A stretch of DNA of 64,000 bases from Deltaproteobacteria bacterium (GCA_014191855.1 BJHF01000027.1:488-64487), one strand, 5' to 3'; numbered from the stretch's first letter, positions 6,089 to 18,149 are shown. Notes: generated by a model from the sequence alone, not told the origin. Translations and numbers: made by a program.

Positions 6089-8073
6089 CTCGTGCCCGAG
6101 GGCGGCGCCGCGGCCTTGGTAAACCGCCGCGCTTGCCAGATCAGGTAGGGGTCATCCGGCTCGAGTCTGGCCGCTTCACGGGCTTGAATGCCGGCCTCCG
6201 CGAGATCGCCCCGCACGTAGGCGACGACCGCCGCCGTGTCGCGATACGCGCTGTTCTTCGGGTCCGACTTCACCGCGCGCGAGGCGGCAGCAGAAGCGGC
6301 GTCCAGTCGATCTCCGCCAAGCGCCCAGTACCAAGCATCGCAATTGTCGCGCGCCGCGCCGCGCCGGAAGGGCTTGCAATCACGAGCGTACCCTTTCTCC
6401 AACGCCTCCCGGGCCGCCGGTTCGTCGGCCACGAGGCGCAGCGCTGCGCCCACAAAGTCGAGCGGCTCCGCCTCGGGGTGCAACCGACCCAAGGCCCGCG
6501 AAAGATCTGCCTTGAACGTGGAATGATCCTGCGGCTCCAGTGAGAGCGAGTACAACCACATCGCCTGGCCACCGATGGGGTACACGTCCAGCAGGCTTCG
6601 CAGGGTGCTGATCGCGCCGTAGCGATCCCCCTGCTCCAACGCCACGAGCGCGCGACGGAATAGAAATCCGCTGCCGCCGCGGTCCACCGCGATCGCCTCG
6701 TCCAACGCACGCTGCGCCTCAGCCGGTCGGTTGTTCGCCAACAGCGCATCCGAGAGGCCAACGAGCAGCTCCTGCCGCACGTCCGCGTCCGCCACCTCCA
6801 ACTTCAGCGCGAGCTGAGCACGCTCCAGCGCCTCGGCCTCCCGACCGTTCGCGATCAGCGAGCCCAGCATCGTTCCCCAGATGCCCTCGTCCACCAGCTC
6901 GATGGGGCTGAGCGAAGCGAGCCGGGCGATCGCTTCCGCATCCTTGCCGTCGTAGAAGTCCACCCGGGCCGCCAGCGCGATCAGCGCCGGGTCCTCCCCG
7001 CTGCTCGCGATCGCCTCCTGGATCGTGGTGCGCGCCGAGGTCAGCTCGTCGTGCCCGATGAGGACCTTTGCCCGCGCGGCCGCCCGCCGGGGGTCGTGCC
7101 CATGATGCGCGAGGTCCTCCGCCAACCAGGCTGCAGATGCGTCAAACACACGCCGCTTTTGCGGTCGTTCGAGCGTGAGCCGCTCGCCCGGGTAATCGAT
7201 CACAACCCGCTGGTCGCCGTAGCTACGAAAACCGAGGAGGCCCGTCGAAACCGCGCATGCGTCTGCGCCAGGATCGTCCGGACTCGACCACCGGATTGGC
7301 CCGGTGCGCTTCGCGCGACGGCCCCCAAAGGTGAGCCACGTCGCCGGGATGTGCCGCGTTTCCGTCAAGAACTGGAAGTCGGGCACCTTGTCTAGCGCCG
7401 CGCCGATCCCGACCACGGGCTCCACGCCCAGCGTCGTAAAGGGTCGGAACGGCTCCCCCGTTTGGCACCACAGGCTGGTATCCGAGGCGCCCGTGTCAAT
7501 CTCGATGGTTACCGGCACCTTGGCCGTTACCCCTTCGTGCTCCGCCTCCACCATCACATCCACGATCACGCGGTTCCCCGCCACGCGGATCTTCTGCCCT
7601 TTTCCCTTGGCTTTGTAGGTGCCCGGCCGGTGCAGCTCCAGCCGATCCGCGGGGTAGTCCACCACGACCGTGAAGTGGCTCCACACGTTGTGGCCGAAGA
7701 TCCCGTCCACCGGGATCGCCCCCGCCATGTCCGGAACGCCCGGAACGCCAGTCGCGACATCCACATTGTCCAGGGTGAAGTCCCCAAGTTTTACGTTCGA
7801 CAGCGTGGCGCGTTGCCAGCTCACGCTGCCAGAGAGCCCGGCCACCCGCCCCCCGGCATCTTCGCTCACGAGGCCGAGGCGCTCGGCGGCCTCGGGGTTG
7901 ATCACCGAGATGGCCGCGCCGGAGTCCACCAGGAACAGCCCGGTGCTGCCGTCCGGAAGCACGGCTTGTACATACACTTTGTCCGCGCCGGGCGAACCCC
8001 GCCACAGGTCGAGCGTCGTGCTGTCCCCCGCGCCCGCGAGGGCCGCCCCGATCCCTACGACGAAGCTGAACAT
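6085..8073 (-). CDS. secreted protein with two retropepsin-like aspartyl-protease domains and C-terminal TPR repeats
   Basis: LFLVDSGAAISVI and IEIDTGASDTSLW are retropepsin-type D-[ST]-G-A motifs. The C-terminal approximately 300 aa are TPR-like. The start was set at ATG 8073 (MFSFVVGIGAALAGAG signal). The longer ORF start at 8112 would overlap the upstream gene by 32 nt. Confidence 0.8.
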   Translation of the reverse strand: MFSFVVGIGAALAGAGDSTTLDLWRGSPGADKVYVQAVLPDGSTGLFLVDSGAAISVINPEAAERLGLVSEDAGGRVAGLSGSVSWQRATLSNVKLGDFTLDNVDVATGVPGVPDMAGAIPVDGIFGHNVWSHFTVVVDYPADRLELHRPGTYKAKGKGQKIRVAGNRVIVDVMVEAEHEGVTAKVPVTIEIDTGASDTSLWCQTGEPFRPFTTLGVEPVVGIGAALDKVPDFQFLTETRHIPATWLTFGGRRAKRTGPIRWSSPDDPGADACAVSTGLLGFRSYGDQRVVIDYPGERLTLERPQKRRVFDASAAWLAEDLAHHGHDPRRAAARAKVLIGHDELTSARTTIQEAIASSGEDPALIALAARVDFYDGKDAEAIARLASLSPIELVDEGIWGTMLGSLIANGREAEALERAQLALKLEVADADVRQELLVGLSDALLANNRPAEAQRALDEAIAVDRGGSGFLFRRALVALEQGDRYGAISTLRSLLDVYPIGGQAMWLYSLSLEPQDHSTFKADLSRALGRLHPEAEPLDFVGAALRLVADEPAAREALEKGYARDCKPFRRGAARDNCDAWYWALGGDRLDAASAAASRAVKSDPKNSAYRDTAAVVAYVRGDLAEAGIQAREAARLEPDDPYLIWQARRFTKAAAPPSGTR

Positions 8074-8080
8074 CGGTGCG

Positions 8081-8935
8081 CTAAACCCCCGCCTCTGTTG
8101 AAGTAGGCGCATCCAGCCGCTCCGGGTTCTCCAGCAGCGCCTTCATCTCCTTGGCCACCACGCCGCCATGGTAGCCGTCCACCACGCGATGGTCGAAGGT
8201 TCCGTTGATGTGGAGCACCCGCCCGATCACGATCTTCCCGTCCTCCACCACCGGTTTCTCCTCGATCGTGCCCAGCGTGATGATGATCGGCGTGCGCGCC
8301 AGCGGAAAGAACGGCGCGTATCCGATGGTGAGCCCGAACACGCCCACGTTGGTGACCATCGCCGACCCGAAGGGATCCCCGGGCGTGCCGAGGAATTTCG
8401 GGTTGATGTTGAGGGTGTACTGCAGAAAGTCGAGGAAACGCAGCACCGGCTTGATGAGGAAGCCAGGCAGTCCGGCCAGTCCCTTCTTCGTCTGATTGAA
8501 CTCCTCGTCGTTGCCGCTGCGGATCTTCACCGCCCGCTCGCGGATCATCTTGCCCATGGCCACCACATCGAGCTGCTCGGCGTTCTTGATCTTGATCCCA
8601 CTGAGATCAGTCTTGCCGATGTTCTCCGCGTCTTCCACCACGATCTGCATGAAGATGTCGATGTCGCGGCGCTGGTAGAGGCTGCCCATCCGAACCAGGG
8701 AATTCAGATCCCGGTGCTTCTGGATGATGAGCGCAAGTCCACGCGCCACCGCATGGCTCACCGTCACCTTCTCCCCGGAGTCCACCCGCTTCTTCGCGAT
8801 CCACGCCTCAAGCCGCTCCGATCGCACCTCCAGCGATCCGTACACGTGCGGATCGTAGGGATGGTCCCACACGTTCGCGGCGATCTGCCGGTACGTCGAA
8901 GGGTTCGGGTACCGAGTGAGCTCGATGTTCGGCAT
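8081..8935 (-). CDS. stand-alone 2-oxoacid dehydrogenase acyltransferase (E2) catalytic-domain protein
   Basis: The C-terminal INGTFDHRVVDGYHGG matches the E2 catalytic DHRxxDG motif. There is no lipoyl or E3-binding domain in the 284 aa. Confidence 0.85.
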   Translation of the reverse strand: MPNIELTRYPNPSTYRQIAANVWDHPYDPHVYGSLEVRSERLEAWIAKKRVDSGEKVTVSHAVARGLALIIQKHRDLNSLVRMGSLYQRRDIDIFMQIVVEDAENIGKTDLSGIKIKNAEQLDVVAMGKMIRERAVKIRSGNDEEFNQTKKGLAGLPGFLIKPVLRFLDFLQYTLNINPKFLGTPGDPFGSAMVTNVGVFGLTIGYAPFFPLARTPIIITLGTIEEKPVVEDGKIVIGRVLHINGTFDHRVVDGYHGGVVAKEMKALLENPERLDAPTSTEAGV

Positions 8936-8950
8936 CTGAGCTTGTATCGC

Positions 8951-9400
8951 TCAAGCGCGGAGCTTGCCGATCTCGCGGAGCAGGTTCTCGGTCATCGCCG
9001 CAAACCCCTTCTCAAGCCGCGGGCGGAGTCCAAGCTTCTCCGCCAACAACAAGAGGTAGCCGTTCCCATCGAAGTCCACGTGCAGGGTTACGAGCGTGTT
9101 GGTGCTCGGCTTCGTCGTTCGCAGGCTGTAGTGGAGCTTCCCCTTGAGCCGCCGCCCGTCGAGCGCCACGTGTACGCGACGGCCACCGTGCTCCTCGTCC
9201 ACCCGGTCAAAACTGTAGCTGAGCACCCGGGGGCGAGGCTGGCTTTTGATGTCCAGGTCGAAGCAGCCGGTGCCGGTTTCGCGCAGGCCATCCCACGCAC
9301 CATCCACGATCAACCGGTGGTTCTTCGGTTCGCTGAGCCAGGCGAGCACGTCGTCCCGGCGCACGCCCTCGATCAAAACGTCGTTGGTGTAGACGGACAT
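8951..9400 (-). CDS. SRPBCC/START-like small protein (tentative)
   Basis: 149-aa ORF with an ATG start. Size and alternating beta/helix pattern resemble polyketide-cyclase/SRPBCC proteins. The family call comes from weak visual similarity only. Confidence 0.6.
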   Translation of the reverse strand: MSVYTNDVLIEGVRRDDVLAWLSEPKNHRLIVDGAWDGLRETGTGCFDLDIKSQPRPRVLSYSFDRVDEEHGGRRVHVALDGRRLKGKLHYSLRTTKPSTNTLVTLHVDFDGNGYLLLLAEKLGLRPRLEKGFAAMTENLLREIGKLRA

Positions 9401-9447
9401 CGTTCCTCCCGCCGGGGGGCCGGCTGGCGCCGGGTTATCCCGCGCCG

Positions 9448-10278
9448 ATGGTCCCGTACATCCATCTTCCGGTCTACCAGTTGGGGCCGATCCCGCTCGA
9501 CCCGTGGGGAATCCTCGTAACCACGGGGTTCGTGCTGGGTTTGGAGATCGCCCGGGCGCGCGGCATCGCCAAGGGTTTGGACGTTCGGGACATCGTGGAT
9601 GGCGTCGTCTTTACCGTCCTGATGGGTTTTGTGTTCGGCCACCTGGTCCACGTGCTCGCGTACCACCCCGAGCAGCTCGACGAGCAGGGCTTCGCCGCGT
9701 TGTACCGCATCTGGGCGGGCTTTTCGAGCTTCGGCGGCTTCATCGGCGCCGTGATCGGCAGCACCCTGTTCTTCACGGTCATCCGCAAGCGCGACTTCTG
9801 GTCGCACGCGGACGTCGTGATGTTCGCCTTCCCGTTCGCCTGGATCTTCGGCCGGGCCGGCTGCGCGATCGTGCACGACCACATCGGGCGGCCAACGGAC
9901 TTTTTTCTGGCCGTGAACTTCGCGACATGGCGGCCGGAGCTCGGCGTTCGGCATGACCTCGGGCTCTACGAGTGCCTGTGGGCGATGGTGATCTCGGCGG
10001 TGTTCTGGGCGTTCCGCAAGCGCGCCTGGCCGGCCGGCACCTTCCTGGTCATCTGGTGCTTCATGTACGCGCCGGTGCGGTTCTTCATGGACTTCCTGCG
10101 TAGAACCGACGAGATCGAGGGCTTCCCCACGGCAGATGTGCGCTGGGCGGGGCTGACGCCGGGGCAGTGGGGCAGCATCGTGATGTTCCTGGCCGGCGTG
10201 GCGATGTTCGTTCGGGTGCGGCGGTTGATGAAGGGCGCGGCGGCGGTGGGAGATGTGCAGGTGGGGGCGGCGGAGTAG
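9448..10278 (+). CDS. lgt: prolipoprotein diacylglyceryl transferase
   Basis: Polytopic membrane protein containing WGILVTTGF...GFSSFGGFIGAVIG...GRAGCAIVHDH...GLTPGQWGS, the Lgt signature (GR.GN/C-type motif and Lgt topology). Confidence 0.92.
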   Translation: MVPYIHLPVYQLGPIPLDPWGILVTTGFVLGLEIARARGIAKGLDVRDIVDGVVFTVLMGFVFGHLVHVLAYHPEQLDEQGFAALYRIWAGFSSFGGFIGAVIGSTLFFTVIRKRDFWSHADVVMFAFPFAWIFGRAGCAIVHDHIGRPTDFFLAVNFATWRPELGVRHDLGLYECLWAMVISAVFWAFRKRAWPAGTFLVIWCFMYAPVRFFMDFLRRTDEIEGFPTADVRWAGLTPGQWGSIVMFLAGVAMFVRVRRLMKGAAAVGDVQVGAAE

Positions 10279-10539: not shown

Positions 10540-10872
10540 TCAGCAGACGCGACGATAGAGTCCCCGCCGACCGAGGGCGCCGGTTTCACCTGGCTGGGGA
10601 TGCTCCGGCGGCCGTTTCATCCGGGTGGGGTTGGTCCAGTCGCCAGCCCCGACGCTGTCGCGACACCACAACGCGCGCACCGCGAAGCGCTCGTCCCACC
10701 GGCGGCTCCGCGGTGCAGCGATGGCGAGAAACGTACCTGTGAACCAAGGGATCGGGCCTGCGCCATCGTCCATCCCAGGCGAGGTCGCCGTGACGCTACG
10801 CACCTCATCCGCCGCAAGTAAGTCCACCAGCGCCATGCACGGGCGGGTGGGGGACACGAATTTCGAAGTCAC
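10540..10872 (-). CDS. hypothetical 110-aa protein (possibly a remnant domain), GTGA-coupled to the kinase gene
   Basis: The GTG start overlaps the kinase stop (GTGA). Third positions are mostly G/C. PIPWFTGTFLAIAAP faintly recalls the N-terminus of FGE-sulfatase domains. No confident family. Confidence 0.35.
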   Translation of the reverse strand: MTSKFVSPTRPCMALVDLLAADEVRSVTATSPGMDDGAGPIPWFTGTFLAIAAPRSRRWDERFAVRALWCRDSVGAGDWTNPTRMKRPPEHPQPGETGALGRRGLYRRVC

Positions 10873-13487
10873 CGCGACCGACTCGCCCAGCTAACCAGCG
10901 CCGCCGCAAGGATCGGCCCAGTGATCGGCGCGAGGCTCCCGCCCGTCGCAAGCGCAAGCGCGAGCGCGACGGCCAGGATCGCTGGCACCCAGCGCAGCCC
11001 TCGGAGCGCGGGCGGAACACGCGCGCTCGTGGCGATGAACGCCGTGCCTATACCAACCAGCAACGTGAGCACAGCCGCGAATTCCGGTGGCAGCTCGCGT
11101 GGCGCGGCCTGGCGAAGGAGCGTCTGCACCTGGGCGGCGAGCACTTCCGCTCCGTACCGCTGGCCCTCGGGCGTGCGCTGGAGGTCCTCATCCCCGAGAA
11201 GCGCCCCGACGATGGCGAGCCGCCCGCGCACGGCGGCAAGGTCACCCGTCGCTGGGATGGTCGTGACAGGACCCGATGGCGCGATCCCGTAGCTGTTTCG
11301 CGAAAGTGGACTTCGAAGCGCGCCGATCCGGAGCTCGCCGTCCACCGTCTCCGGCTCCGCGGCGCCCACAAGGGCCCCGGCCGCCAGGATTGACACGTGC
11401 CAGTACGTCCTCCCGGCGTCGTCAGCCACGCGCACTCGAGCGCGCCGCACCCACCCGATCGTGAGGTCGGCCAACGCCACGGCGTGGCCAAGCTCCGCCG
11501 CTTCCCCGAGCGCGTGGCTCCCCGGCCGCCGCACCTGCTCGCCATCCATCCGGACCGGCAAAATGACCGGAATGCCAGCCCGCTCGATCGCCGCGGCGAT
11601 CGCGCCGTCCTGCTCCGTTTCAGGCGTGAAGCTCACGTCGATCAGGATCGCGGCGGCCTCGGCGGCGGCGAGGCGGTCGACGAGGGCCGGCCATTCGGCG
11701 CGGAAGCTGCGTAGATCGCCCACTTCAGGGAGGGACACCACCACGACATCGTCGATGGCTACCGTTCGCCCGGCCGCGCGCAGCAGGGGGTAGTGCACGT
11801 GCACGTCCACGAGATCGGCCAGCCCCAGGAAAACCAACAGCGCAGGGGCGATCACCGCGGCTACCAAACGAAATTGTACTCGCGAGCGGAGGAGCGCCGG
11901 GAACGCGCGTGCGAGCACTTCGTCCAGGGTGCCGACCTCCAGGCGTTCAACGCCTGCATCGCTGGGCGGACTGCCGCGGGGCACGATCACGAGGACACAG
12001 CCTGCGCCAGCGGCGGCCAGCAGCTTGGCGGGAATGCCCCCCACGGGCGCGATCTGGCCATCAAGGTCTACGCCGCCCGTGAACACCCAGCCCGACGGCA
12101 CCGGGAGTCCTCGCACGGCGCTCGCGGTGGCGACCGCGACGGCCAGCGCCAACGAGGTGCCGTGGATGCGAAATCCTGCGCCGCGTACCTGCCAGACGAC
12201 GCGCCGCTCCCCCGCTGAGGCGCCGAGCACGGCCGCCACGGCGATCTGCGCGGCGACCTGCGCGTCGCGCTCCACGTCCTGCGGAGTCGAGATGCCCGTG
12301 GCCCCGCTGTACACCTCGACAATCACCTCGACGAGGTGTCCCCTCCCCGCGCCGTCGACCACGAGCGCGGTCGCGACCCCGGGTCGTCCGGAGGGGGTCG
12401 GCTGCGTCGGGGGCAGCGGCTGCGCCCGGGCGGCGTGCGTTTCCGGGGCCGCGCCGTCGGGGTCTTCGGCGGCCTCCACCGCCATCGTCTCGCCGGCAGA
12501 CTGTGGCGGGGCATTCCACACCCTGGATCCCTCGAAAATTGCGCGCACGGTCGCGATGTCAGGCGGCCGCGCCTGAGGATCCACCCGGAGGCAAGCCTCG
12601 ACGGTGCGGCGCCACGCTTCCGGCACCCCTGATCGGGCCTGCCCGAGCGGGAGGTACCGCCCGGTGCTCGCGGCGGCGAGCACCTCCCACGCCGCCTCCC
12701 CTGCGAAGGGCGGGTGACCCGTCACCATCGCGTAAAGGGTTGCGCCAAGGCTCCAGATGTCCGCGCGCATGGTCACGTCGCGCGCGCTCCGAGCCTGCTC
12801 CGGGGCCATGTAGTGCGGCGAGCCGAGGGCGATGCCCGCGCGTGTCGAGTGCCCGCCGGCCGCCTCGCCGTCTGCCCGCGCGATCCCGAAATCCGAGACC
12901 TTCGGCACCGGAGGCGAAACGGCGTCGTCGAGCAGCACGTTCGCGGGCTTGATGTCGCGGTGTACGATATTATCGGCGTGTGCCGCATCGATCCCATCGA
13001 GGATCGCGCGGAAGACTCGCTCCACTTCCGCGAGCGGGAGGGGTTGGCCGGCGATTCGCTCGTGTAGGTTCCCACCGCTCACGAACTCCAAGAGCAACGC
13101 CGGCGCGTCGCCCACCTGGAGGATGTCGATCACCCCAACGACGTTTTGGTGGTGAAGCTGGGCGAGCACCCGGCCTTCCGTGTAGAGCCGCGCCCGCGTC
13201 GCCGCGTCGGCTCCGTCCAGGACCTTGAGCGCGCGGACGACGCCCAGATCGCGATGCCGAACCTGGTAAACGGTGGCCTGCCCGCCCCGGCCGACCACGC
13301 GCTCCACCACGTAGCGATCGACGATGTCGCCCGGTTTCAGGGTTCCGCTCACGGGCGGAGTGTAACGGGCGGCCGATCGCGGCCGCAGGCGGGAGACCGT
13401 AGACCGTAGGCTGGAGCGGAACCGAGAGCGGAGCTCACCGCACCAGTCGCACCGACCTCCCTCGCGCGTCGAGTCCGAGGAGAACAT
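10869..13487 (-). CDS. Ser/Thr protein kinase fused to a Lon-type (S16) protease-like domain and a C-terminal CHASE2 sensor with TM helices
   Basis: Hanks kinase motifs are present: GRGGQATVY..ALKVL, HRDIKPANVLL, SDFGIAR, YMAPEQ. The middle segment HGTSLALAVAVATASAV...VFTGGVDLDGQIAPVGGIPAKLLAAAGAGCVLVIVP aligns with the Lon proteolytic domain. A TM helix follows, then a CHASE2-like segment (VVVVSLPE...ILIDVSF...IPVILPV), then terminal TM helices. The start at 13487 is uncertain because it overlaps the upstream ORF by about 50 nt. Confidence 0.9.
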   Translation of the reverse strand: MFSSDSTREGGRCDWCGELRSRFRSSLRSTVSRLRPRSAARYTPPVSGTLKPGDIVDRYVVERVVGRGGQATVYQVRHRDLGVVRALKVLDGADAATRARLYTEGRVLAQLHHQNVVGVIDILQVGDAPALLLEFVSGGNLHERIAGQPLPLAEVERVFRAILDGIDAAHADNIVHRDIKPANVLLDDAVSPPVPKVSDFGIARADGEAAGGHSTRAGIALGSPHYMAPEQARSARDVTMRADIWSLGATLYAMVTGHPPFAGEAAWEVLAAASTGRYLPLGQARSGVPEAWRRTVEACLRVDPQARPPDIATVRAIFEGSRVWNAPPQSAGETMAVEAAEDPDGAAPETHAARAQPLPPTQPTPSGRPGVATALVVDGAGRGHLVEVIVEVYSGATGISTPQDVERDAQVAAQIAVAAVLGASAGERRVVWQVRGAGFRIHGTSLALAVAVATASAVRGLPVPSGWVFTGGVDLDGQIAPVGGIPAKLLAAAGAGCVLVIVPRGSPPSDAGVERLEVGTLDEVLARAFPALLRSRVQFRLVAAVIAPALLVFLGLADLVDVHVHYPLLRAAGRTVAIDDVVVVSLPEVGDLRSFRAEWPALVDRLAAAEAAAILIDVSFTPETEQDGAIAAAIERAGIPVILPVRMDGEQVRRPGSHALGEAAELGHAVALADLTIGWVRRARVRVADDAGRTYWHVSILAAGALVGAAEPETVDGELRIGALRSPLSRNSYGIAPSGPVTTIPATGDLAAVRGRLAIVGALLGDEDLQRTPEGQRYGAEVLAAQVQTLLRQAAPRELPPEFAAVLTLLVGIGTAFIATSARVPPALRGLRWVPAILAVALALALATGGSLAPITGPILAAALVSWASRSR

Positions 13488-13806
13488 CGCCGACCGGCGG
13501 CACGGGCACCGGAACGCCAGGGGCGAGAGCGACGCGCACCTCCCCGACCTGGATGGTCAGCCCCCCGGGGCCTGCGGTCTGCGTGGCGAAGCCGCCGCCC
13601 ACCACCACCGAGTAAACCGAGTCCCGGTAGGTGTGCTCGCCGTCCGCAGCGGCCAGGCGAATCGGGCTTTCCACTTCTTCCAAGGCCTCGAACTCGTCGT
13701 CCTCCTCGCTGCGCTCTCGCGCGTGCCGGCGCCGCGCCGCGAGCCGCGCGAGCCCATCGAGCAGCGGCTGCCCGGCGAGCAGGCCCTCCCAGCGATCGCG
13801 GCTCAC
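13435..13806 (-). CDS. small hypothetical protein (about 123 aa) between the sigma-like and kinase genes
   Basis: The GTG start overlaps the stop of the sigma-like gene (GTGA). It has an acidic helical N-half (ERSEEDDEFEALEEVE) and a beta-rich C-half. The longer upstream ORF extension was rejected. Confidence 0.45.
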   Translation of the reverse strand: MSRDRWEGLLAGQPLLDGLARLAARRRHARERSEEDDEFEALEEVESPIRLAAADGEHTYRDSVYSVVVGGGFATQTAGPGGLTIQVGEVRVALAPGVPVPVPPVGDVLLGLDARGRSVRLVR

Positions 13807-14771
13807 GCGCCCTCCCCGATGCTGTCCAACACGTCCAGCACCAGCTCCAGGAGCGCCTTGGGCGGAGGCCTCGACGCTTCCGGCGCGCCCAGCTCCCCCG
13901 CCAGCCGCGCAACGAAGTGCTCCCCGATGCGCTCCAGCGCGCGCGTAACCGCCACACGGTGCGCGTATTGGGGCAGACGCGCACACACCTCATCGTAGCT
14001 CTCCCCCCCGATGATCGCGCGGAGCAACGCCCGATCCTCCGAGGCGAGGGCCGACCATCCGGCAAGCACCGCCGCGCGCACGGCCCCCCGACTCAGCAGG
14101 TCTTCGCTGTGCGTTTCTTCGGCCGCCTCGGGCCCCGCAGGCGCGCCGATCACCGCTTCGAGCACGCGGCACAGCTGCGACTGGGTGCGGGGGCCGCCCA
14201 GCCGAAGTGCGCGATCAACCAAGGTGGGGACGTCCCGCTCCGGGCTCCCGCGAAGCAGCTCCACGAGTGTGGCTTCATAGCGGATGGCTGAGATTCCTTC
14301 GAGGCGCCACCGCGGCGGGGCGCCGGCGATGCGCTCGGCGACGAGGCGGAGGTGGTCGCCGATCGCGCCGTAGAGATCCGCGCGCCAAACGAGACGCGGA
14401 TCGGAGGAGAGATTGTGCGCGTAGTCGGCGCGCAGGAGCTCGCGGGTGATCGAGAGCTTGGCGTAGAAGCTATGGTAACGGATCGCGCGACCATCGAAGC
14501 TCTCCAGGGCGTACGCGCGAAACGGCGTGCGACCGGAGAACGGGAAGCGGCCTTTCGGGGTGCGCGCGCACGTAGTGTAGACGCGCGCGCCGAGGTCGGC
14601 GATGGCCTCGGCGTGCTTGCGCCCCAGGGCGAACCAGGCGTCCGGGTAGGGGCGCGCGACGCTCGCGACGTGCCGGAGCACCTCCGTGAGCAGGGCGCGC
14701 CCGCTCCCCTCGTCGCGGTCGAAGGCGGCCACGAGCGAGGGGAGCGGGTCATCGAAACGAATGACGGACAT
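13803..14771 (-). CDS. ECF-like sigma factor with extended region2-region4 linker
   Basis: N-terminal FSGRTPFRAYALESFDGRAIRYH resembles sigma region 2.3-2.4 (F.G.S.F..WL..I..N...D..R). C-terminal LASEDRALLRAIIGGESYDEVCARLPQYAHRVAVTRALERI resembles the region 4 HTH. About 130 aa separate the two regions. Confidence 0.7.
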   Translation of the reverse strand: MSVIRFDDPLPSLVAAFDRDEGSGRALLTEVLRHVASVARPYPDAWFALGRKHAEAIADLGARVYTTCARTPKGRFPFSGRTPFRAYALESFDGRAIRYHSFYAKLSITRELLRADYAHNLSSDPRLVWRADLYGAIGDHLRLVAERIAGAPPRWRLEGISAIRYEATLVELLRGSPERDVPTLVDRALRLGGPRTQSQLCRVLEAVIGAPAGPEAAEETHSEDLLSRGAVRAAVLAGWSALASEDRALLRAIIGGESYDEVCARLPQYAHRVAVTRALERIGEHFVARLAGELGAPEASRPPPKALLELVLDVLDSIGEGA

Positions 14772-14802
14772 GGCGGGAGCCTCTAACGGATGCGAGGTCG
14801 GC

Positions 14803-15885
14803 TTAGAGGCCGTTCAAGTAGGCGTTGAAGTCGGCCTCGCTCGTCGGGAGCAGGTCGACCGACAGCGTTTCCTTCATTTCACCTCCACCCACGTCCACGC
14901 CAACCGGGATGGTGTAGGCGTCGTCATGGAAGAGGAAACGCTCCCCGTCGATGAGCGAGTAGATCACGAGCTTCCCGGTGATCCCCACGGGCATGCCGTT
15001 CATGTAGCTGCGGTAGCCGGGGAGGCTGGAGTCCCCGGTGTACAACTGCACGGCGCTGCTCGCCCCCGCCGGGAGGAAGAACACGGCCGCTTCGGTGGAG
15101 AAGTGGGAGAGGAACACCACGTCCAGGGTCACGTGGACCGCGGACAGGTTGGTGATCGCATCGCAGTTGTAGGCGGAGTACCCGCCGATCCCACCTGCCC
15201 ATACCCCGCTGAACTGGAAGGCGTTGTCCCCGGAGCCGTCCTTCCCGCGCACCAACGTTGCCGTCGCGGGCTCTTCCAAGGGGCGCGTCCAGGCCTCCCC
15301 CGCGTCCCCCGCGACGAAGAGCTCCATGCCCGAGGCGGTGCTGTCCCAGGCGTCGAAGGCGAGGTCCGTGATGCCGTTGATGGCCAGCGGCTGGCCTTCC
15401 TGGGAGGCCTTCAGGGCGAACGAGCCGCTCGTCGCGAGCCAGTCACCGTCAGCGGTGAGCGTGGCGCGGCCGCCGCGGACCATGTCGCCGAGGGAGTCGT
15501 ACTCGGTCAGCTCGACGTCCACGGCGCCGCCGGCCAGCCGGCCGTCGCTGAAGGAGAAGGCTTTGGGGCCGATGGTGATGTGGACGGAGTCGCCCGCGAT
15601 GGCACCCCCGACCGACGCATCCGCGATCGTGAACGCGGTGGGCTCCGGGCCGAGCAGCGCGAAGAGCTCAGCCAGCGTCGCAGGCGCGGAGCCGCCGCCG
15701 CCGGTGTCCCAGCTGTCGTTGGCCTCGCCCGTGTCGAGCCGGTCGCCGGAATCCGCGCTGTCGCCGAGGGCTCCTCCGCCCGGCGCGCCGGAGTCGTCGA
15801 GCTGGGCCTCGGTTTCCGCGGCCAGCGGCAGGCAGCCGGAGAGCAGCGCCAAAAGGGTGGGGACGAACGGACAGATGGAACGCAT
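14803..15885 (-). CDS. lipoprotein of unknown function
   Basis: The internal ATG at 15885 gives MRSICPFVPTLLALLSGC (signal plus lipobox), followed by a Ser/Asp/Gly-rich linker. Its stop is 31 nt upstream of the sigma-like gene on the same strand. Confidence 0.7.
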   Translation of the reverse strand: MRSICPFVPTLLALLSGCLPLAAETEAQLDDSGAPGGGALGDSADSGDRLDTGEANDSWDTGGGGSAPATLAELFALLGPEPTAFTIADASVGGAIAGDSVHITIGPKAFSFSDGRLAGGAVDVELTEYDSLGDMVRGGRATLTADGDWLATSGSFALKASQEGQPLAINGITDLAFDAWDSTASGMELFVAGDAGEAWTRPLEEPATATLVRGKDGSGDNAFQFSGVWAGGIGGYSAYNCDAITNLSAVHVTLDVVFLSHFSTEAAVFFLPAGASSAVQLYTGDSSLPGYRSYMNGMPVGITGKLVIYSLIDGERFLFHDDAYTIPVGVDVGGGEMKETLSVDLLPTSEADFNAYLNGL

Positions 15886-16011
15886 GGGCACCTCGGGGTG
15901 AAACGGGGCCGGGGAAATCCGGTCCGTACGATGCTCCAAGGGACAGGTGCGCGCCCGTTACGAAACCAACGAAATAATTCTGGCCGCGCGGTCCGTGATA
16001 CGAGGATCGGC

Positions 16012-17019
16012 GTGCTTCACCGGCTGTTCCTCCTCTGCCTGCTGATCCTCGCGGTGCCGTCGCGGGCGTTCGCCGCCTGGGGGGAGATCGTTGAGCTGTC
16101 GGCGCCCGACGCGCAGGGGCAGTGGCGTCCGGTGGCGACGACCACCCGCGTGCTCATCCTCCGCGGCGAAGCCAGACTTCCCGCGGCGCGAGGGATGGTG
16201 CTGGAGGAAGGGGATCGCATCGTTACCGAAGAGGCCCGCGCGCGGCTCACGGTCGGGACGGGGGAGGAGATTGCGGTTGGCGAACATGCCGATCTGGAGG
16301 TTCGCGCCCGAACGGTGCTCCAGCGGCTCGGCGACGTATACTACTCGGTGCGCGGCGCGTTCGAGGTGCGCTACGGAACCGTTCAAACGACCGTCGAAGG
16401 CACCGAGTTCGCCATCGACGGGAACGGCGCCTCGGTGCGGATCACGGTCATCGAGGGGCGCGTGCGGGTGAACGCGCCCGCCGGGGAGACTCGCCTCCGA
16501 CGATGGCAGACCGTGGAGTCGCCCGCGGAGGCGCCGCCCGCGTCCGGGCTGGGCCTCCGACCGGTCACGAAGCCGGCCGCCGCCGCCCGCATTGTCGAGC
16601 GCGCCTTCGGTCGGCCTCGGGCGGAGATCGGACTCTTTGGCGCCGCCGGTCTGGAGCCGGGCGGGGTCACCGTCAACCTTCGGGCGCTCGCTCGCGTTCG
16701 GCTCGCTGGCGCCCTCCGCCTCGCGTTCGACACCGCGATCGGCACCAACGGCCGCGCCGAGGGGCTCCGGCTGCCGCAAGCCATGGGTCTGGAGCTCGGC
16801 TTCGGCCCCCTGGCCGTCGGCACCCAGCTCGTCGGCACCTTCGAGCTCGCCCGCCTCAACTGCGACGGCGCCTACACCGCGCTCCACCTCGGCGGCGTGG
16901 GCTCAGTCCGATACGGCCTCCCGCTCTCGCGGCGGGTATCCGCACAAGTGCTGCTTCGCGGCGGCTATGTTCAGGGACCGATGGGCGACCTCGGCCTCGG
17001 CTTCGCGGTGGCGCTATGA
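16012..17019 (+). CDS. secreted FecR-domain protein with beta-strand-rich C-terminus
   Basis: GTG at 16012 is preceded by GAGGA. VLHRLFLLCLLILAVPSRAFA is a signal peptide. LEEGDRIVTEEARARLTVGTGEEIAVGEHADLEV...TTVEGTEFAI is a FecR domain. The upstream part of ORF 14686..17019 was rejected. Confidence 0.8.
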   Translation: MLHRLFLLCLLILAVPSRAFAAWGEIVELSAPDAQGQWRPVATTTRVLILRGEARLPAARGMVLEEGDRIVTEEARARLTVGTGEEIAVGEHADLEVRARTVLQRLGDVYYSVRGAFEVRYGTVQTTVEGTEFAIDGNGASVRITVIEGRVRVNAPAGETRLRRWQTVESPAEAPPASGLGLRPVTKPAAAARIVERAFGRPRAEIGLFGAAGLEPGGVTVNLRALARVRLAGALRLAFDTAIGTNGRAEGLRLPQAMGLELGFGPLAVGTQLVGTFELARLNCDGAYTALHLGGVGSVRYGLPLSRRVSAQVLLRGGYVQGPMGDLGLGFAVAL

Positions 17020-18149
17020 CGCTGTTCTTCATGCTCGGCTGCACCTTTGTGCTGGACGATCAGCCGTGTTCGCCGGATACCGGCGGCACGGACACGAACA
17101 CCGGCATCGACTCGGCCGACACGGCGCTCGACAGCGCGCCGGACACCGCCGAGGACAGCGGCTGTGAGACGTCGGCCCTGTTTCGGGACGTAGACGGCGA
17201 TGGATTTGGGGACCCCGAGCTATCGGAAGACCGTTGCCCGACCGAGGGGTGGGTAGCCGAAGCGGGGGACTGCAACGACGCCGATGCCGACGTGCACCCG
17301 GGGGCGCGGGAGCGGTGCAACGGCACGTCCGACGCTTGCGACGCCGCCTGGGCCAATGACGACGGCCTGGCTACGTTCACCGATGCGCTCGGGGCGATCG
17401 ATCTAACGGCCGAGCTCGCGGGTATCGACGGCGCCCCGGCTTTCGCTGCGTTTGGCGTGGGCTCTCTCGCGCTCTGCACCGGCACCTGGTTCGTCAACCT
17501 CAGCTTCACCGCCGGGGGCGTGGTGAGCGGCGTCGGCGACGGGGTCGTGCTCGACGGGGGCGGGGCGGGATCCGTGCTCGATCTGGGCGCGGGGGACTAC
17601 GACCTCTCGGGTCTCACTGTCCGCAACGGCGCGGGGTCGGCGGGGGGCGGAATCTCAGTAAACGGAGCCGACAACCTTTCGATAACGGGGCTCGTCGTCG
17701 AAGCCAATACGGCCGCGATTGGGGGTGGTCTGAGCATGGGTACGCCGACGGTGGCGACGATCGTGGACTCCACGTTCTCGGGGAACGCGGCCACGGGCGA
17801 CGGCGGGGGAGTCGCCGTTTCCGGCGGGAGCCTCCTGCTGCGAAGCTCCACGGTGTCGGCCAACCACGCGACGGGCCAGGGAGGCGGGATCTATGCGGAG
17901 GATGCGGCCCTCACGTGCATCGGCGATGGCGCGGTCGAGGGCCTCGGAGTTCTGGAGAACGCATCCGACGCCAAAGAGAACGAGGTTCGGCTCGCCGGCC
18001 GGTCGTTTACCCTGCTCGCGGAGTCGTGCGATCTCGCGCGAACCGCGAGCAGCCCGCTTGGCATCGTTTCGGTGGAGGCGGTCTCCGATTTTGCGTATGG
18101 GCCGGATGCGACGTTTTCCTGTGACTCGACGGGGTGCGTGGGTCCGTGA
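17016..18149 (+). CDS. lipoprotein with putative metal-binding (MopE-like) motif and right-handed beta-helix repeats
   Basis: The ATG overlaps the FecR stop (ATGA). MTLFFMLGC is a lipobox. DVDGDGFGD...CNDADADVHPGARERCNG is the putative metal-binding motif. Repeated GG.I...S.L.. segments (GGGISVNGADNLSITG, GGGLSMG, GGGVAVSGGSLLLRSS, GGGIYAED) are beta-helix-like. Confidence 0.8.
   Translation: MTLFFMLGCTFVLDDQPCSPDTGGTDTNTGIDSADTALDSAPDTAEDSGCETSALFRDVDGDGFGDPELSEDRCPTEGWVAEAGDCNDADADVHPGARERCNGTSDACDAAWANDDGLATFTDALGAIDLTAELAGIDGAPAFAAFGVGSLALCTGTWFVNLSFTAGGVVSGVGDGVVLDGGGAGSVLDLGAGDYDLSGLTVRNGAGSAGGGISVNGADNLSITGLVVEANTAAIGGGLSMGTPTVATIVDSTFSGNAATGDGGGVAVSGGSLLLRSSTVSANHATGQGGGIYAEDAALTCIGDGAVEGLGVLENASDAKENEVRLAGRSFTLLAESCDLARTASSPLGIVSVEAVSDFAYGPDATFSCDSTGCVGP

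Follow-up and report, generated by a model that had tools for sequence, protein, structure and literature searches.

A conserved FecR-CHASE2-Lon sensor module with a possible, very divergent sigma/anti-sigma-like pair in uncultured Myxococcota

Introduction

What carries a signal from the cell envelope to transcription at a locus where a sigma-like gene, a protein kinase gene and a gene for a secreted FecR-domain protein lie side by side? The question is raised by a 64,000-nucleotide (nt) stretch of DNA from a Deltaproteobacteria bacterium (GCA_014191855.1, BJHF01000027.1:488-64487; GC content about 69%), hereafter the window, by which we always mean the whole 64-kb stretch. An initial annotation had described in it an extracytoplasmic function (ECF)-like sigma factor carrying a 130-amino-acid (aa) insert, encoded in a kinase operon that faces a FecR/beta-helix gene pair. 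We call the sigma-like protein of 322 aa F0 and the adjoining protein of 123 aa F2 throughout. The composite, undescribed control module suspected in the initial annotation is present and conserved, and corresponds to a lineage-specific, so far undescribed variant of envelope-to-transcription signalling in uncultured Myxococcota. As to the nature of its components, we favour the reading in which F0 and F2 form a new and very divergent sigma/anti-sigma-like pair placed under a FecR-CHASE2-Lon(-kinase) sensor, with a confidence that stays somewhat under an even chance.

The following features of the locus are referred to below.

15931-15963, minus strand: promoter-like site TCGTAAC-N14-CCCTTGGA, the best match in the window to the position weight matrix (PWM) of the promoter motif.
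14803-15885, minus strand: lipoprotein of 360 aa with lipobox LLSGC, first gene of the operon (open reading frame, ORF, and codon bias).
13803-14771, minus strand: F0, 322 aa, all-helical and cytoplasmic (ORF and AlphaFold2, AF2, model; no profile match).
13435-13806, minus strand: F2, 123 aa, acidic (GTGA start/stop overlap with F0).
10869-13487, alternative start at 13352, minus strand: kinase-Lon_C-CHASE2 sensor of 872 aa (827 aa from the alternative start; Pfam matches).
16012-17019, plus strand: secreted FecR-domain protein of 335 aa (PF04773 and signal peptide).
17016-18149, plus strand: lipoprotein of 377 aa with lipobox FMLGC, ATGA-coupled to the FecR gene.
10540-10872, minus strand: ORF of 110 aa in GTGA overlap with the stop codon of the kinase gene, probably not a gene.

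The ORFs of the two lipoproteins, F0, F2, the kinase and the FecR-domain protein were borne out with the coordinates and strands of the initial annotation, as were the 31-nt gap between the first lipoprotein gene (15885-14803) and F0, the GTGA overlap of F0 and F2, and the ATGA coupling of the FecR gene to its companion. Independent gene callers gave the same products of 335, 360, 322 and 123 aa in two other assemblies, and NCBI products identical at 100% exist for the sensor (LBMAG42_21950) and for F2 (LBMAG42_21960).

Results

Conservation and synteny of the module

Related loci, designated by L and a number, were collected from Myxococcota metagenome-assembled genomes (MAGs), about 30 in total, of which 27 came from species-representative genomes. 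A FecR homologue was located within 10 kb of F0 in at least 20 of the 30 loci, and a (kinase-)Lon-CHASE2 homologue in at least 16 of the 30; both counts are lower bounds, several contigs being incomplete. In 27 of 29 loci, an F2-type ORF directly follows F0, with its start at -3 or +9 as counted from the stop codon of F0. The synteny of F0, F2, FecR and sensor is thus far beyond chance, and the recurrence of the gene set in other genomes, for which the initial annotation had asked, leaves no room for the lack of synteny that it had named as an outcome speaking against the module.

Three main architectures were recovered. In type A the order is sensor, FecR, RCC1-repeat lipoprotein, F0 and F2, all on the same strand. 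Type B has an FG-GAP protein gene and FecR divergent from F0-F2, with a kinase-less Lon-CHASE2 gene downstream in convergent orientation. Type C (the window, L005 and L007) has a beta-helix lipoprotein gene and FecR divergent from the F0 operon, which in the window reads lipoprotein, F0, F2, sensor. Some loci contain the F0-F2 pair alone. The identity of F0 falls to 40-45% among loci, and both the linkage and the promoter motif described below persist through the rearranged gene orders.

Some loci deserve a separate mention. The neighbourhood of the F0-F2 pair in L003 is one of copper resistance, with a multicopper oxidase, an HMA P-type ATPase and a cupredoxin, and no FecR or CHASE2 gene was found nearby. 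Nine contigs bearing the module (L006, L007, L013, L015, L016, L023, L027, L028 and L030) are titled "uncultured Klebsiella", "Enterobacteriaceae" or "Enterobacterales" although they are GC-rich and their module is of the Myxococcota type; their taxonomy looks mislabelled.

An ECF-type promoter motif upstream of F0 operons

A bipartite ECF-type motif, TGnAAC-N15-CCCTTGAT, precedes the F0 operons; in most relatives, the FecR operons have it upstream as well. The spacer was exactly 15 nt in 18 of the 19 first-pass sites. A PWM built from 15 sites gave 48 matches in 409 kb, compared with 3 when the sequence was reversed as a control and 1-4 when it was shuffled; with a threshold of at least 18 bits, the comparison was 35 sites against 0. 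Leaving the training sites aside, 33 matches remained against 3 in the control. More than half of the sites (28/48) fell in the 400 nt upstream of F0, which represent 2.7% of the sequence; the others, many of them non-training, faced a divergent FecR gene (type B), lay directly upstream of FecR (type A) or preceded sensor genes. In many loci, the motif is separated from the start codon by 24-36 nt.

The top PWM match of the window, in 64 kb searched on both strands, is the site at 15963 on the minus strand (16.7 bits), located in the 126-bp intergenic region between the lipoprotein and FecR genes and pointing into the lipoprotein-F0-F2-kinase operon. Its second box belongs to a variant type: in the F0 clade of the window and a few others (the window, L003, L005, L006, L007, L012 and L021), this box reads CCCTTGG(T/A/C) and not CCCTTGAT. 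The CCCTTGG box and the 14-nt spacer of the window may mean that the factor and its -10 box have varied together, or else that the site is decaying.

Two genomes contain two paralogous F0-F2 modules each (L006 and L016 in MAG CAYHRZ, L012 and L025 in MAG CAXQUZ), and in each genome the box of one paralogue is of the CCCTTGG type and that of the other is CCCTTGAT, a hint of parallel pathways insulated from one another.

The recognised signature of ECF sigma factors combines autoregulation with an AAC -35 box and a -10 box particular to each group (PMC5758882); the F0 operons have a conserved promoter motif of this autoregulatory type, with an AAC -35 box. The motif is the strongest indirect support for F0 reading these promoters, and it is still compatible with a canonical ECF sigma factor encoded elsewhere.

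Comparison of F0 with sigma factors

The F0 family comprises 63 clusters at 90% identity and 96 representatives (50%-identity clusters) among 1.84 billion proteins, all of them hypothetical or unannotated and all from Myxococcota-type MAGs. In the AF2 model of F0, which is all-helical with a predicted local distance difference test (pLDDT) score of 86.6, an N-terminal domain (residues 1-160) holding most of the invariant residues is followed by a middle bundle of three helices (166-208), by an acidic linker of low confidence (209-223) and by a C-terminal four-helix HTH (helix-turn-helix) domain of the sigma-4/LuxR-like kind (224-294). The middle of the predicted structure looks like sigma-3 plus region 3.2. 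The 130-aa insert of the initial annotation is therefore better described as a confidently folded helical segment, made of helix 125-144, a beta hairpin and the 166-208 bundle, with a low-confidence acidic linker: the structure prediction that it had called for revealed a folded domain and a linker, and gave no insertion into an ECF sigma factor. By definition, an ECF sigma factor has only sigma-2 and sigma-4 with a short linker between them; between the two ends of F0 there are about 80 folded residues plus the linker of 15 aa.

We compared the F0 family with sigma factors using hhalign. With the initial setting (-M first), sigma probabilities were below 1%; with -M 50, accompanied by reversed-sequence controls, weak signals appeared that we do not treat as proof. 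Residues 240-288 of F0 matched the sigma-4 region of RpoE when the family was aligned with the ECF alignment (P=1.3e-3, probability 18%), and a colinear global alignment was obtained with eight sigma factors, namely RpoD, RpoS, RpoH, FliA and RpoE of E. coli and three from the MAG loci (P=7e-4, probability 11%). The reversed-sequence controls gave P=0.02-0.7 overall and 0.02-0.07 for the comparison that yielded the sigma-4 match. The global alignment places the F0 motifs on the sigma regions in the correct order: DL..RVFT.CARV.KGRFPF.GR.PF.AYV on regions 2.1-2.2, RYHSFYAKLSITRELLR on region 2.3 and SYDELIAR.P.F.HKVAV.RAV on region 4.2. In structural searches with Foldseek, sigma factors were the commonest named class both in the PDB top 50 (11 sigma chains, aligned across about 300-330 columns) and in the BFVD top 50 (about 15 annotated sigma factors in full-length alignments, best E 0.06-0.2). 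On the whole, a sigma-4-like HTH in F0 is weakly supported, and the overall sigma layout is suggestive; membership in the sigma-70 family is not demonstrated.

Several results weigh against F0 being a sigma factor. Among F0 and 36 relatives (37 members), none matched the Sigma70 models, GerE or other HTH families of Pfam at E<=10, and F0 alone had no Pfam match at E<=1 and no NCBIfam match at E<=10. The F0-family profile recovered no sigma factor from the PDB sequences, and its 96 matches in the 1.84 billion proteins were all members of its own family. The hhalign probabilities of 11-18% are to be compared with 96% for a tiny ECF-versus-group-3 positive control. With Foldseek, the whole model had no significant match in the PDB (best E 0.15), and no sigma match was significant in either library (all E>=0.06). 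The N-terminal domain modelled alone (pLDDT 91.8) retrieved no sigma-2 domain, the best sigma factor being at rank 24 with E 5.6, and nothing below E 1.3; we thus rejected the statement that a sigma-2 fold is demonstrated. The invariant polar residues of this domain (C68, K73, R75, R81, H100, E111 and N120) could equally well belong to an enzyme or ligand site. On the side of the promoter, the seed sites of the PWM were picked by eye, the spacer of the window site (14 nt) is 1 nt below that of all relatives, and a search for the motif on the FecR side found no site in the window (best score 2.7 bits).

The "recognisable region 2.3-2.4 and region 4" of the initial annotation thus come down to motif-level resemblance. 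F0 fails the sigma70_r2/r4 profile search, the result that had been named beforehand as speaking against a sigma factor, so that neither the ECF class nor the ECF43 type can be assigned to it.

Which protein reads the motif?

F0 could instead be an ordinary non-sigma transcription factor, made of a novel N-terminal sensor- or enzyme-like domain and HTH domains, which would activate or repress transcription by binding the bipartite site, modulated by F2 and with the sensor upstream; we consider this possible but doubtful, and rank it second. The failure of all sigma profile tests and the lack of a sigma-2 match for the N-terminal domain speak for this explanation; moreover, the top Foldseek match by probability is FixJ, a LuxR-type HTH protein, the N-terminal domain has many invariant polar residues, and two HTH-like modules might contact boxes lying about 22 bp apart from centre to centre. 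It fits less well with the site itself: the upstream box is a textbook ECF -35 element (TGnAAC, often then T; PMC5758882), the rigid spacing and the 24-36 nt to the start codons suit a promoter, and the motif lacks the symmetry of a typical dimeric HTH operator. The Foldseek and hhalign alignments of F0 with sigma factors are also full-length and colinear.

The -35 box is typical of canonical ECF sigma factors, and one of these, encoded elsewhere, might read the motif and control the F0-F2 and FecR operons, F0 and F2 then being effectors or members of the regulon. In one locus (L003, 1318-9489), a canonical ECF sigma gene (7266-7859) is indeed located directly 5' of F0-F2, with the motif between them, and a second locus (L007) has one within 10 kb. 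No others among the loci, 2 of about 29, encode a canonical ECF sigma factor at such a distance, however, and the motif follows F0 in all locus types, orphan F0-F2 pairs included. The sigma-4-like HTH of F0 and, as a weaker point, the concentration of the CCCTTGG -10 variant in the F0 clade of the window also argue against this explanation, which we regard as quite improbable.

That chance brought the genes together and that sequence relatedness produced the motif as an artefact is hardly credible: all loci come from one phylum-level MAG group and the PWM was trained on self-picked sites, but linkage and motif persist down to 40-45% F0 identity and across three architectures, and the non-training matches outnumber those of the control by 33 to 3.

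F2, a candidate partner of F0

The initial annotation had noted the lack of a classical anti-sigma domain nearby. The translationally coupled F2 gene nevertheless adjoins F0 and makes F2 a candidate cytoplasmic anti-factor of F0. Across loci, F2-type ORFs encode 123-180 aa; in their alignment, a helix at the N-terminus is followed by an acidic linker, by an RLAAxD motif and by a small beta domain. The family (42 clusters, all hypothetical) matched nothing in Pfam, and an anti-sigma domain was likewise not found; searched against the PDB, its profile gave only weak Ig-like matches (titin, E 1.6e-3). In L015, a 19.2-bit motif match lies within the 3' end of F0 at about position 10875, just 5' of F2, and may be an internal F2 promoter or a chance occurrence.

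The kinase-Lon-CHASE2 sensor

The sensor matches Pkinase (3e-44), CHASE2 (1.3e-11, above cut-off) and Lon_C (7e-8; 32.7 bits for a cut-off of 21.1) in Pfam. From the N-terminus, it is composed of a Hanks Ser/Thr kinase (aa 59-308), a Lon-like S16 protease (about aa 376-520), a transmembrane (TM) helix, a periplasmic CHASE2 domain (aa 576-813) and three TM helices, the positions of the TM helices being inferred by reading the sequence. The Ser-Lys dyad, aligned with S679/K722 of E. coli Lon, is kept in 17/17 homologues; together with the Lon_C score, this upholds the view that the partner kinase also carries a protease domain. The sensor is not a full Lon protease, because it has no Pfam AAA+ match. 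The complete kinase-Lon_C-CHASE2 architecture was recovered in about 20 proteins, all from the same MAG clade.

The Hanks kinase is present in the sensor of the window and in some relatives, and absent from the loci arranged like L001 and L020, in which the sensor is reduced to Lon_C-CHASE2. Since one group of loci lacks it, the kinase is dispensable; what stays constant in the sensor is the Lon-like protease together with CHASE2. A kinase-activated sigma factor was consequently rejected as core mechanism, the kinase being missing from this group while Lon-CHASE2 stays; the kinase does not belong to the invariable components of the module.

The start of the sensor gene is ambiguous between ATG 13487, which overlaps F2 by 53 nt, and GTG 13352, chosen by NCBI and one other caller (827 aa). 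The former adds 45 aa, including a CDWC motif. In a tblastn comparison with L007, the sensor aligns from residue 8, which suggests that the 45-aa extension is real.

We found no paper on CHASE2 combined with a Lon protease. To our knowledge, the ligands and the signalling mechanism of CHASE2 are still unknown.

The FecR-domain protein and its companion

The FecR domain (PF04773, 6.9e-6, above cut-off) covers aa 96-179 of a protein with the signal peptide MLHRLFLLCLLILAVPSRAFA (...SRAFA/AW), as read from the sequence. This domain is its sole Pfam match; the protein has no cytoplasmic N-terminal anti-sigma domain and no TM segment. A role as anti-sigma factor was rejected given the signal peptide and the missing cytoplasmic domain; because it is secreted, the FecR protein is more likely a periplasmic co-sensor for CHASE2. 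CHASE2 is flanked by TM helices and often has a secreted FecR homologue encoded next to it. The FecR module facing the operon, as proposed initially, is real as regards the divergent secreted FecR domain; the FecR-CHASE2 pairing itself was already known (PMC5192318). Beyond the FecR domain, aa 180-335 or so (window 16550-17019) are alternating, Gly-rich and beta-strand-like with no Pfam match, and this C-terminal half might be a membrane-associated beta domain.

The companion of 377 aa had been described as a beta-helix lipoprotein with a putative metal-binding motif. Its ORF and ATGA coupling stand; the matches to the MopE-type Cys motif and to Beta_helix are both just under the Pfam cut-offs. 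The gene after FecR always encodes a secreted beta-rich protein, of unrelated families: besides the beta-helix lipoprotein of the window, it is in L001 (5578-6972) an FG-GAP propeller that ends in a Cys-rich membrane anchor at its C-terminus, and in L010 (about 8900-9855) an RCC1-repeat lipoprotein. This variable slot looks like a swappable specificity or ligand module.

Other features of the locus

The lipoprotein of 360 aa that opens the F0 operon of the window has no Pfam or NCBIfam match and a homologue only in the closest relative, L005; it is outside the conserved core of the module. The 31-nt gap that separates its gene from F0 contains most of an 8-bp inverted repeat, GCCTCTAA-N16-TTAGAGGC (14779-14810, minus strand), whose 5' arm includes the stop codon of the lipoprotein gene and whose 3' arm includes the sole Shine-Dalgarno-like GAGG preceding the ATG of F0. 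The repeat may form a hairpin affecting the translation of F0.

The 110-aa ORF at the end of the operon, listed there in the initial annotation, was rejected as a gene. Its GC content at third and second codon positions (0.76 and 0.63) differs from that of its neighbours (0.82-0.91 and about 0.53), no tblastn match was obtained in any related locus, including a relative with 78% identity, and there was no Pfam or NCBIfam match; it is likely a spurious ORF of a GC-rich genome.

Discussion

A possible mechanism

If F0 and F2 are indeed a sigma/anti-sigma-like pair, the module could work as follows. A periplasmic cue would be sensed by the FecR protein, its lipoprotein companion and CHASE2; this would activate the cytoplasmic Lon-like protease and/or the kinase, where present, which would then remove or modify F2 or F0. 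F0, as a member of the sigma-70 family that has diverged extremely and is laid out like sigma-2/sigma-3/sigma-4, would read the bipartite motif and autoregulate; once freed, it would switch on the operon that encodes it and, in most relatives, that of FecR as well. Classical ECF pathways include a step of regulated proteolysis, which would in this way be built into the sensor polypeptide. A more specific version holds that F0 represents a profile-invisible branch of the sigma-70 family and that F2 is destroyed directly by the Lon-like domain of the sensor, sometimes under the gate of the kinase, a single polypeptide thus replacing multi-protease cascades; we think this version possible but unlikely.

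Should F0 prove to be a sigma factor, a whole family escapes the censuses that rely on profiles (Pfam, ECF Hub), and the module would represent a new coupling of envelope sensing to sigma release through a sensor with its own cytoplasmic Ser-Lys protease. If it is instead an HTH regulator of the ordinary kind, what remains is a new family of regulators specific to this lineage and a new output architecture for CHASE2. The module offers a tractable CHASE2 output, with the motif as a possible reporter and two small soluble proteins as possible substrates.

Comparison with known systems

In FecR-type anti-sigma factors, a TM helix connects an N-terminal anti-sigma domain in the cytoplasm with a FecR domain in the periplasm. 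The present module resembles FecI/FecR systems in having a FecR Pfam domain near a putative sigma factor. It differs from them in that its FecR protein has neither the cytoplasmic anti-sigma domain nor the TM segment, in that there is no FecI-type ECF sigma factor, and in the absence of a TonB-dependent transducer among the conserved neighbours.

ECF sigma factors linked to kinases include ECF43, EcfP/PknT of Vibrio and EcfK/PknS of Xanthomonas (PMC13147305; review in PMC8999054). As regards the kinase they offer the closest comparison, and the operon of the window similarly encodes a transmembrane Hanks kinase beside the putative sigma factor. In these systems, however, the sigma factors are canonical ECFs without anti-sigma factor, whereas F0 is non-canonical and its partner protein is always present; here, moreover, the kinase is absent from one group of loci and the Lon-like protease is the constant cytoplasmic domain. 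An assignment to the ECF43 or EcfP-PknT type does not hold for these reasons.

A related arrangement on the periplasmic side is the known pairing of a FecR-domain protein with a CHASE2 sensor in the RR-LysM/FecR-CHASE2 histidine kinase operon of Burkholderia and in a pair of P. aeruginosa (PMC5192318). In both cases, as here, a secreted FecR-domain protein is encoded beside a CHASE2 membrane sensor. The output of those systems is a histidine kinase with a response regulator, instead of F0 and F2 and a Lon-like protease to which a Hanks kinase may be joined; furthermore, the FecR protein of the present module has no LysM domain, and the gene after it encodes a lipoprotein of the beta-propeller or beta-helix kind.

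The topology of the window sensor is that of the cyanobacterial metacaspase-CHASE2 proteins, with an N-terminal cytoplasmic protease, one TM helix, CHASE2 and three TM helices (PMC3501461). The proteases are different, caspase-like C14 in the latter and Lon S16 in the former, and no linked sigma-like pair has been described for the metacaspase-CHASE2 proteins.

ECF sigma/anti-sigma pairs of the RpoE-RseA type are released by regulated proteolysis through the DegS/RseP/ClpXP cascade. They share with the present module a regulator co-translated with a small partner, an autoregulatory AAC -35 promoter, an envelope sensor and the implication of a protease. They differ from it in that F0 has no Sigma70 profile match and, with 322 aa, contains an extra folded middle domain, in that F2 has no known anti-sigma domain or TM segment, and in that the Lon-like protease of the module is fused to the sensor.

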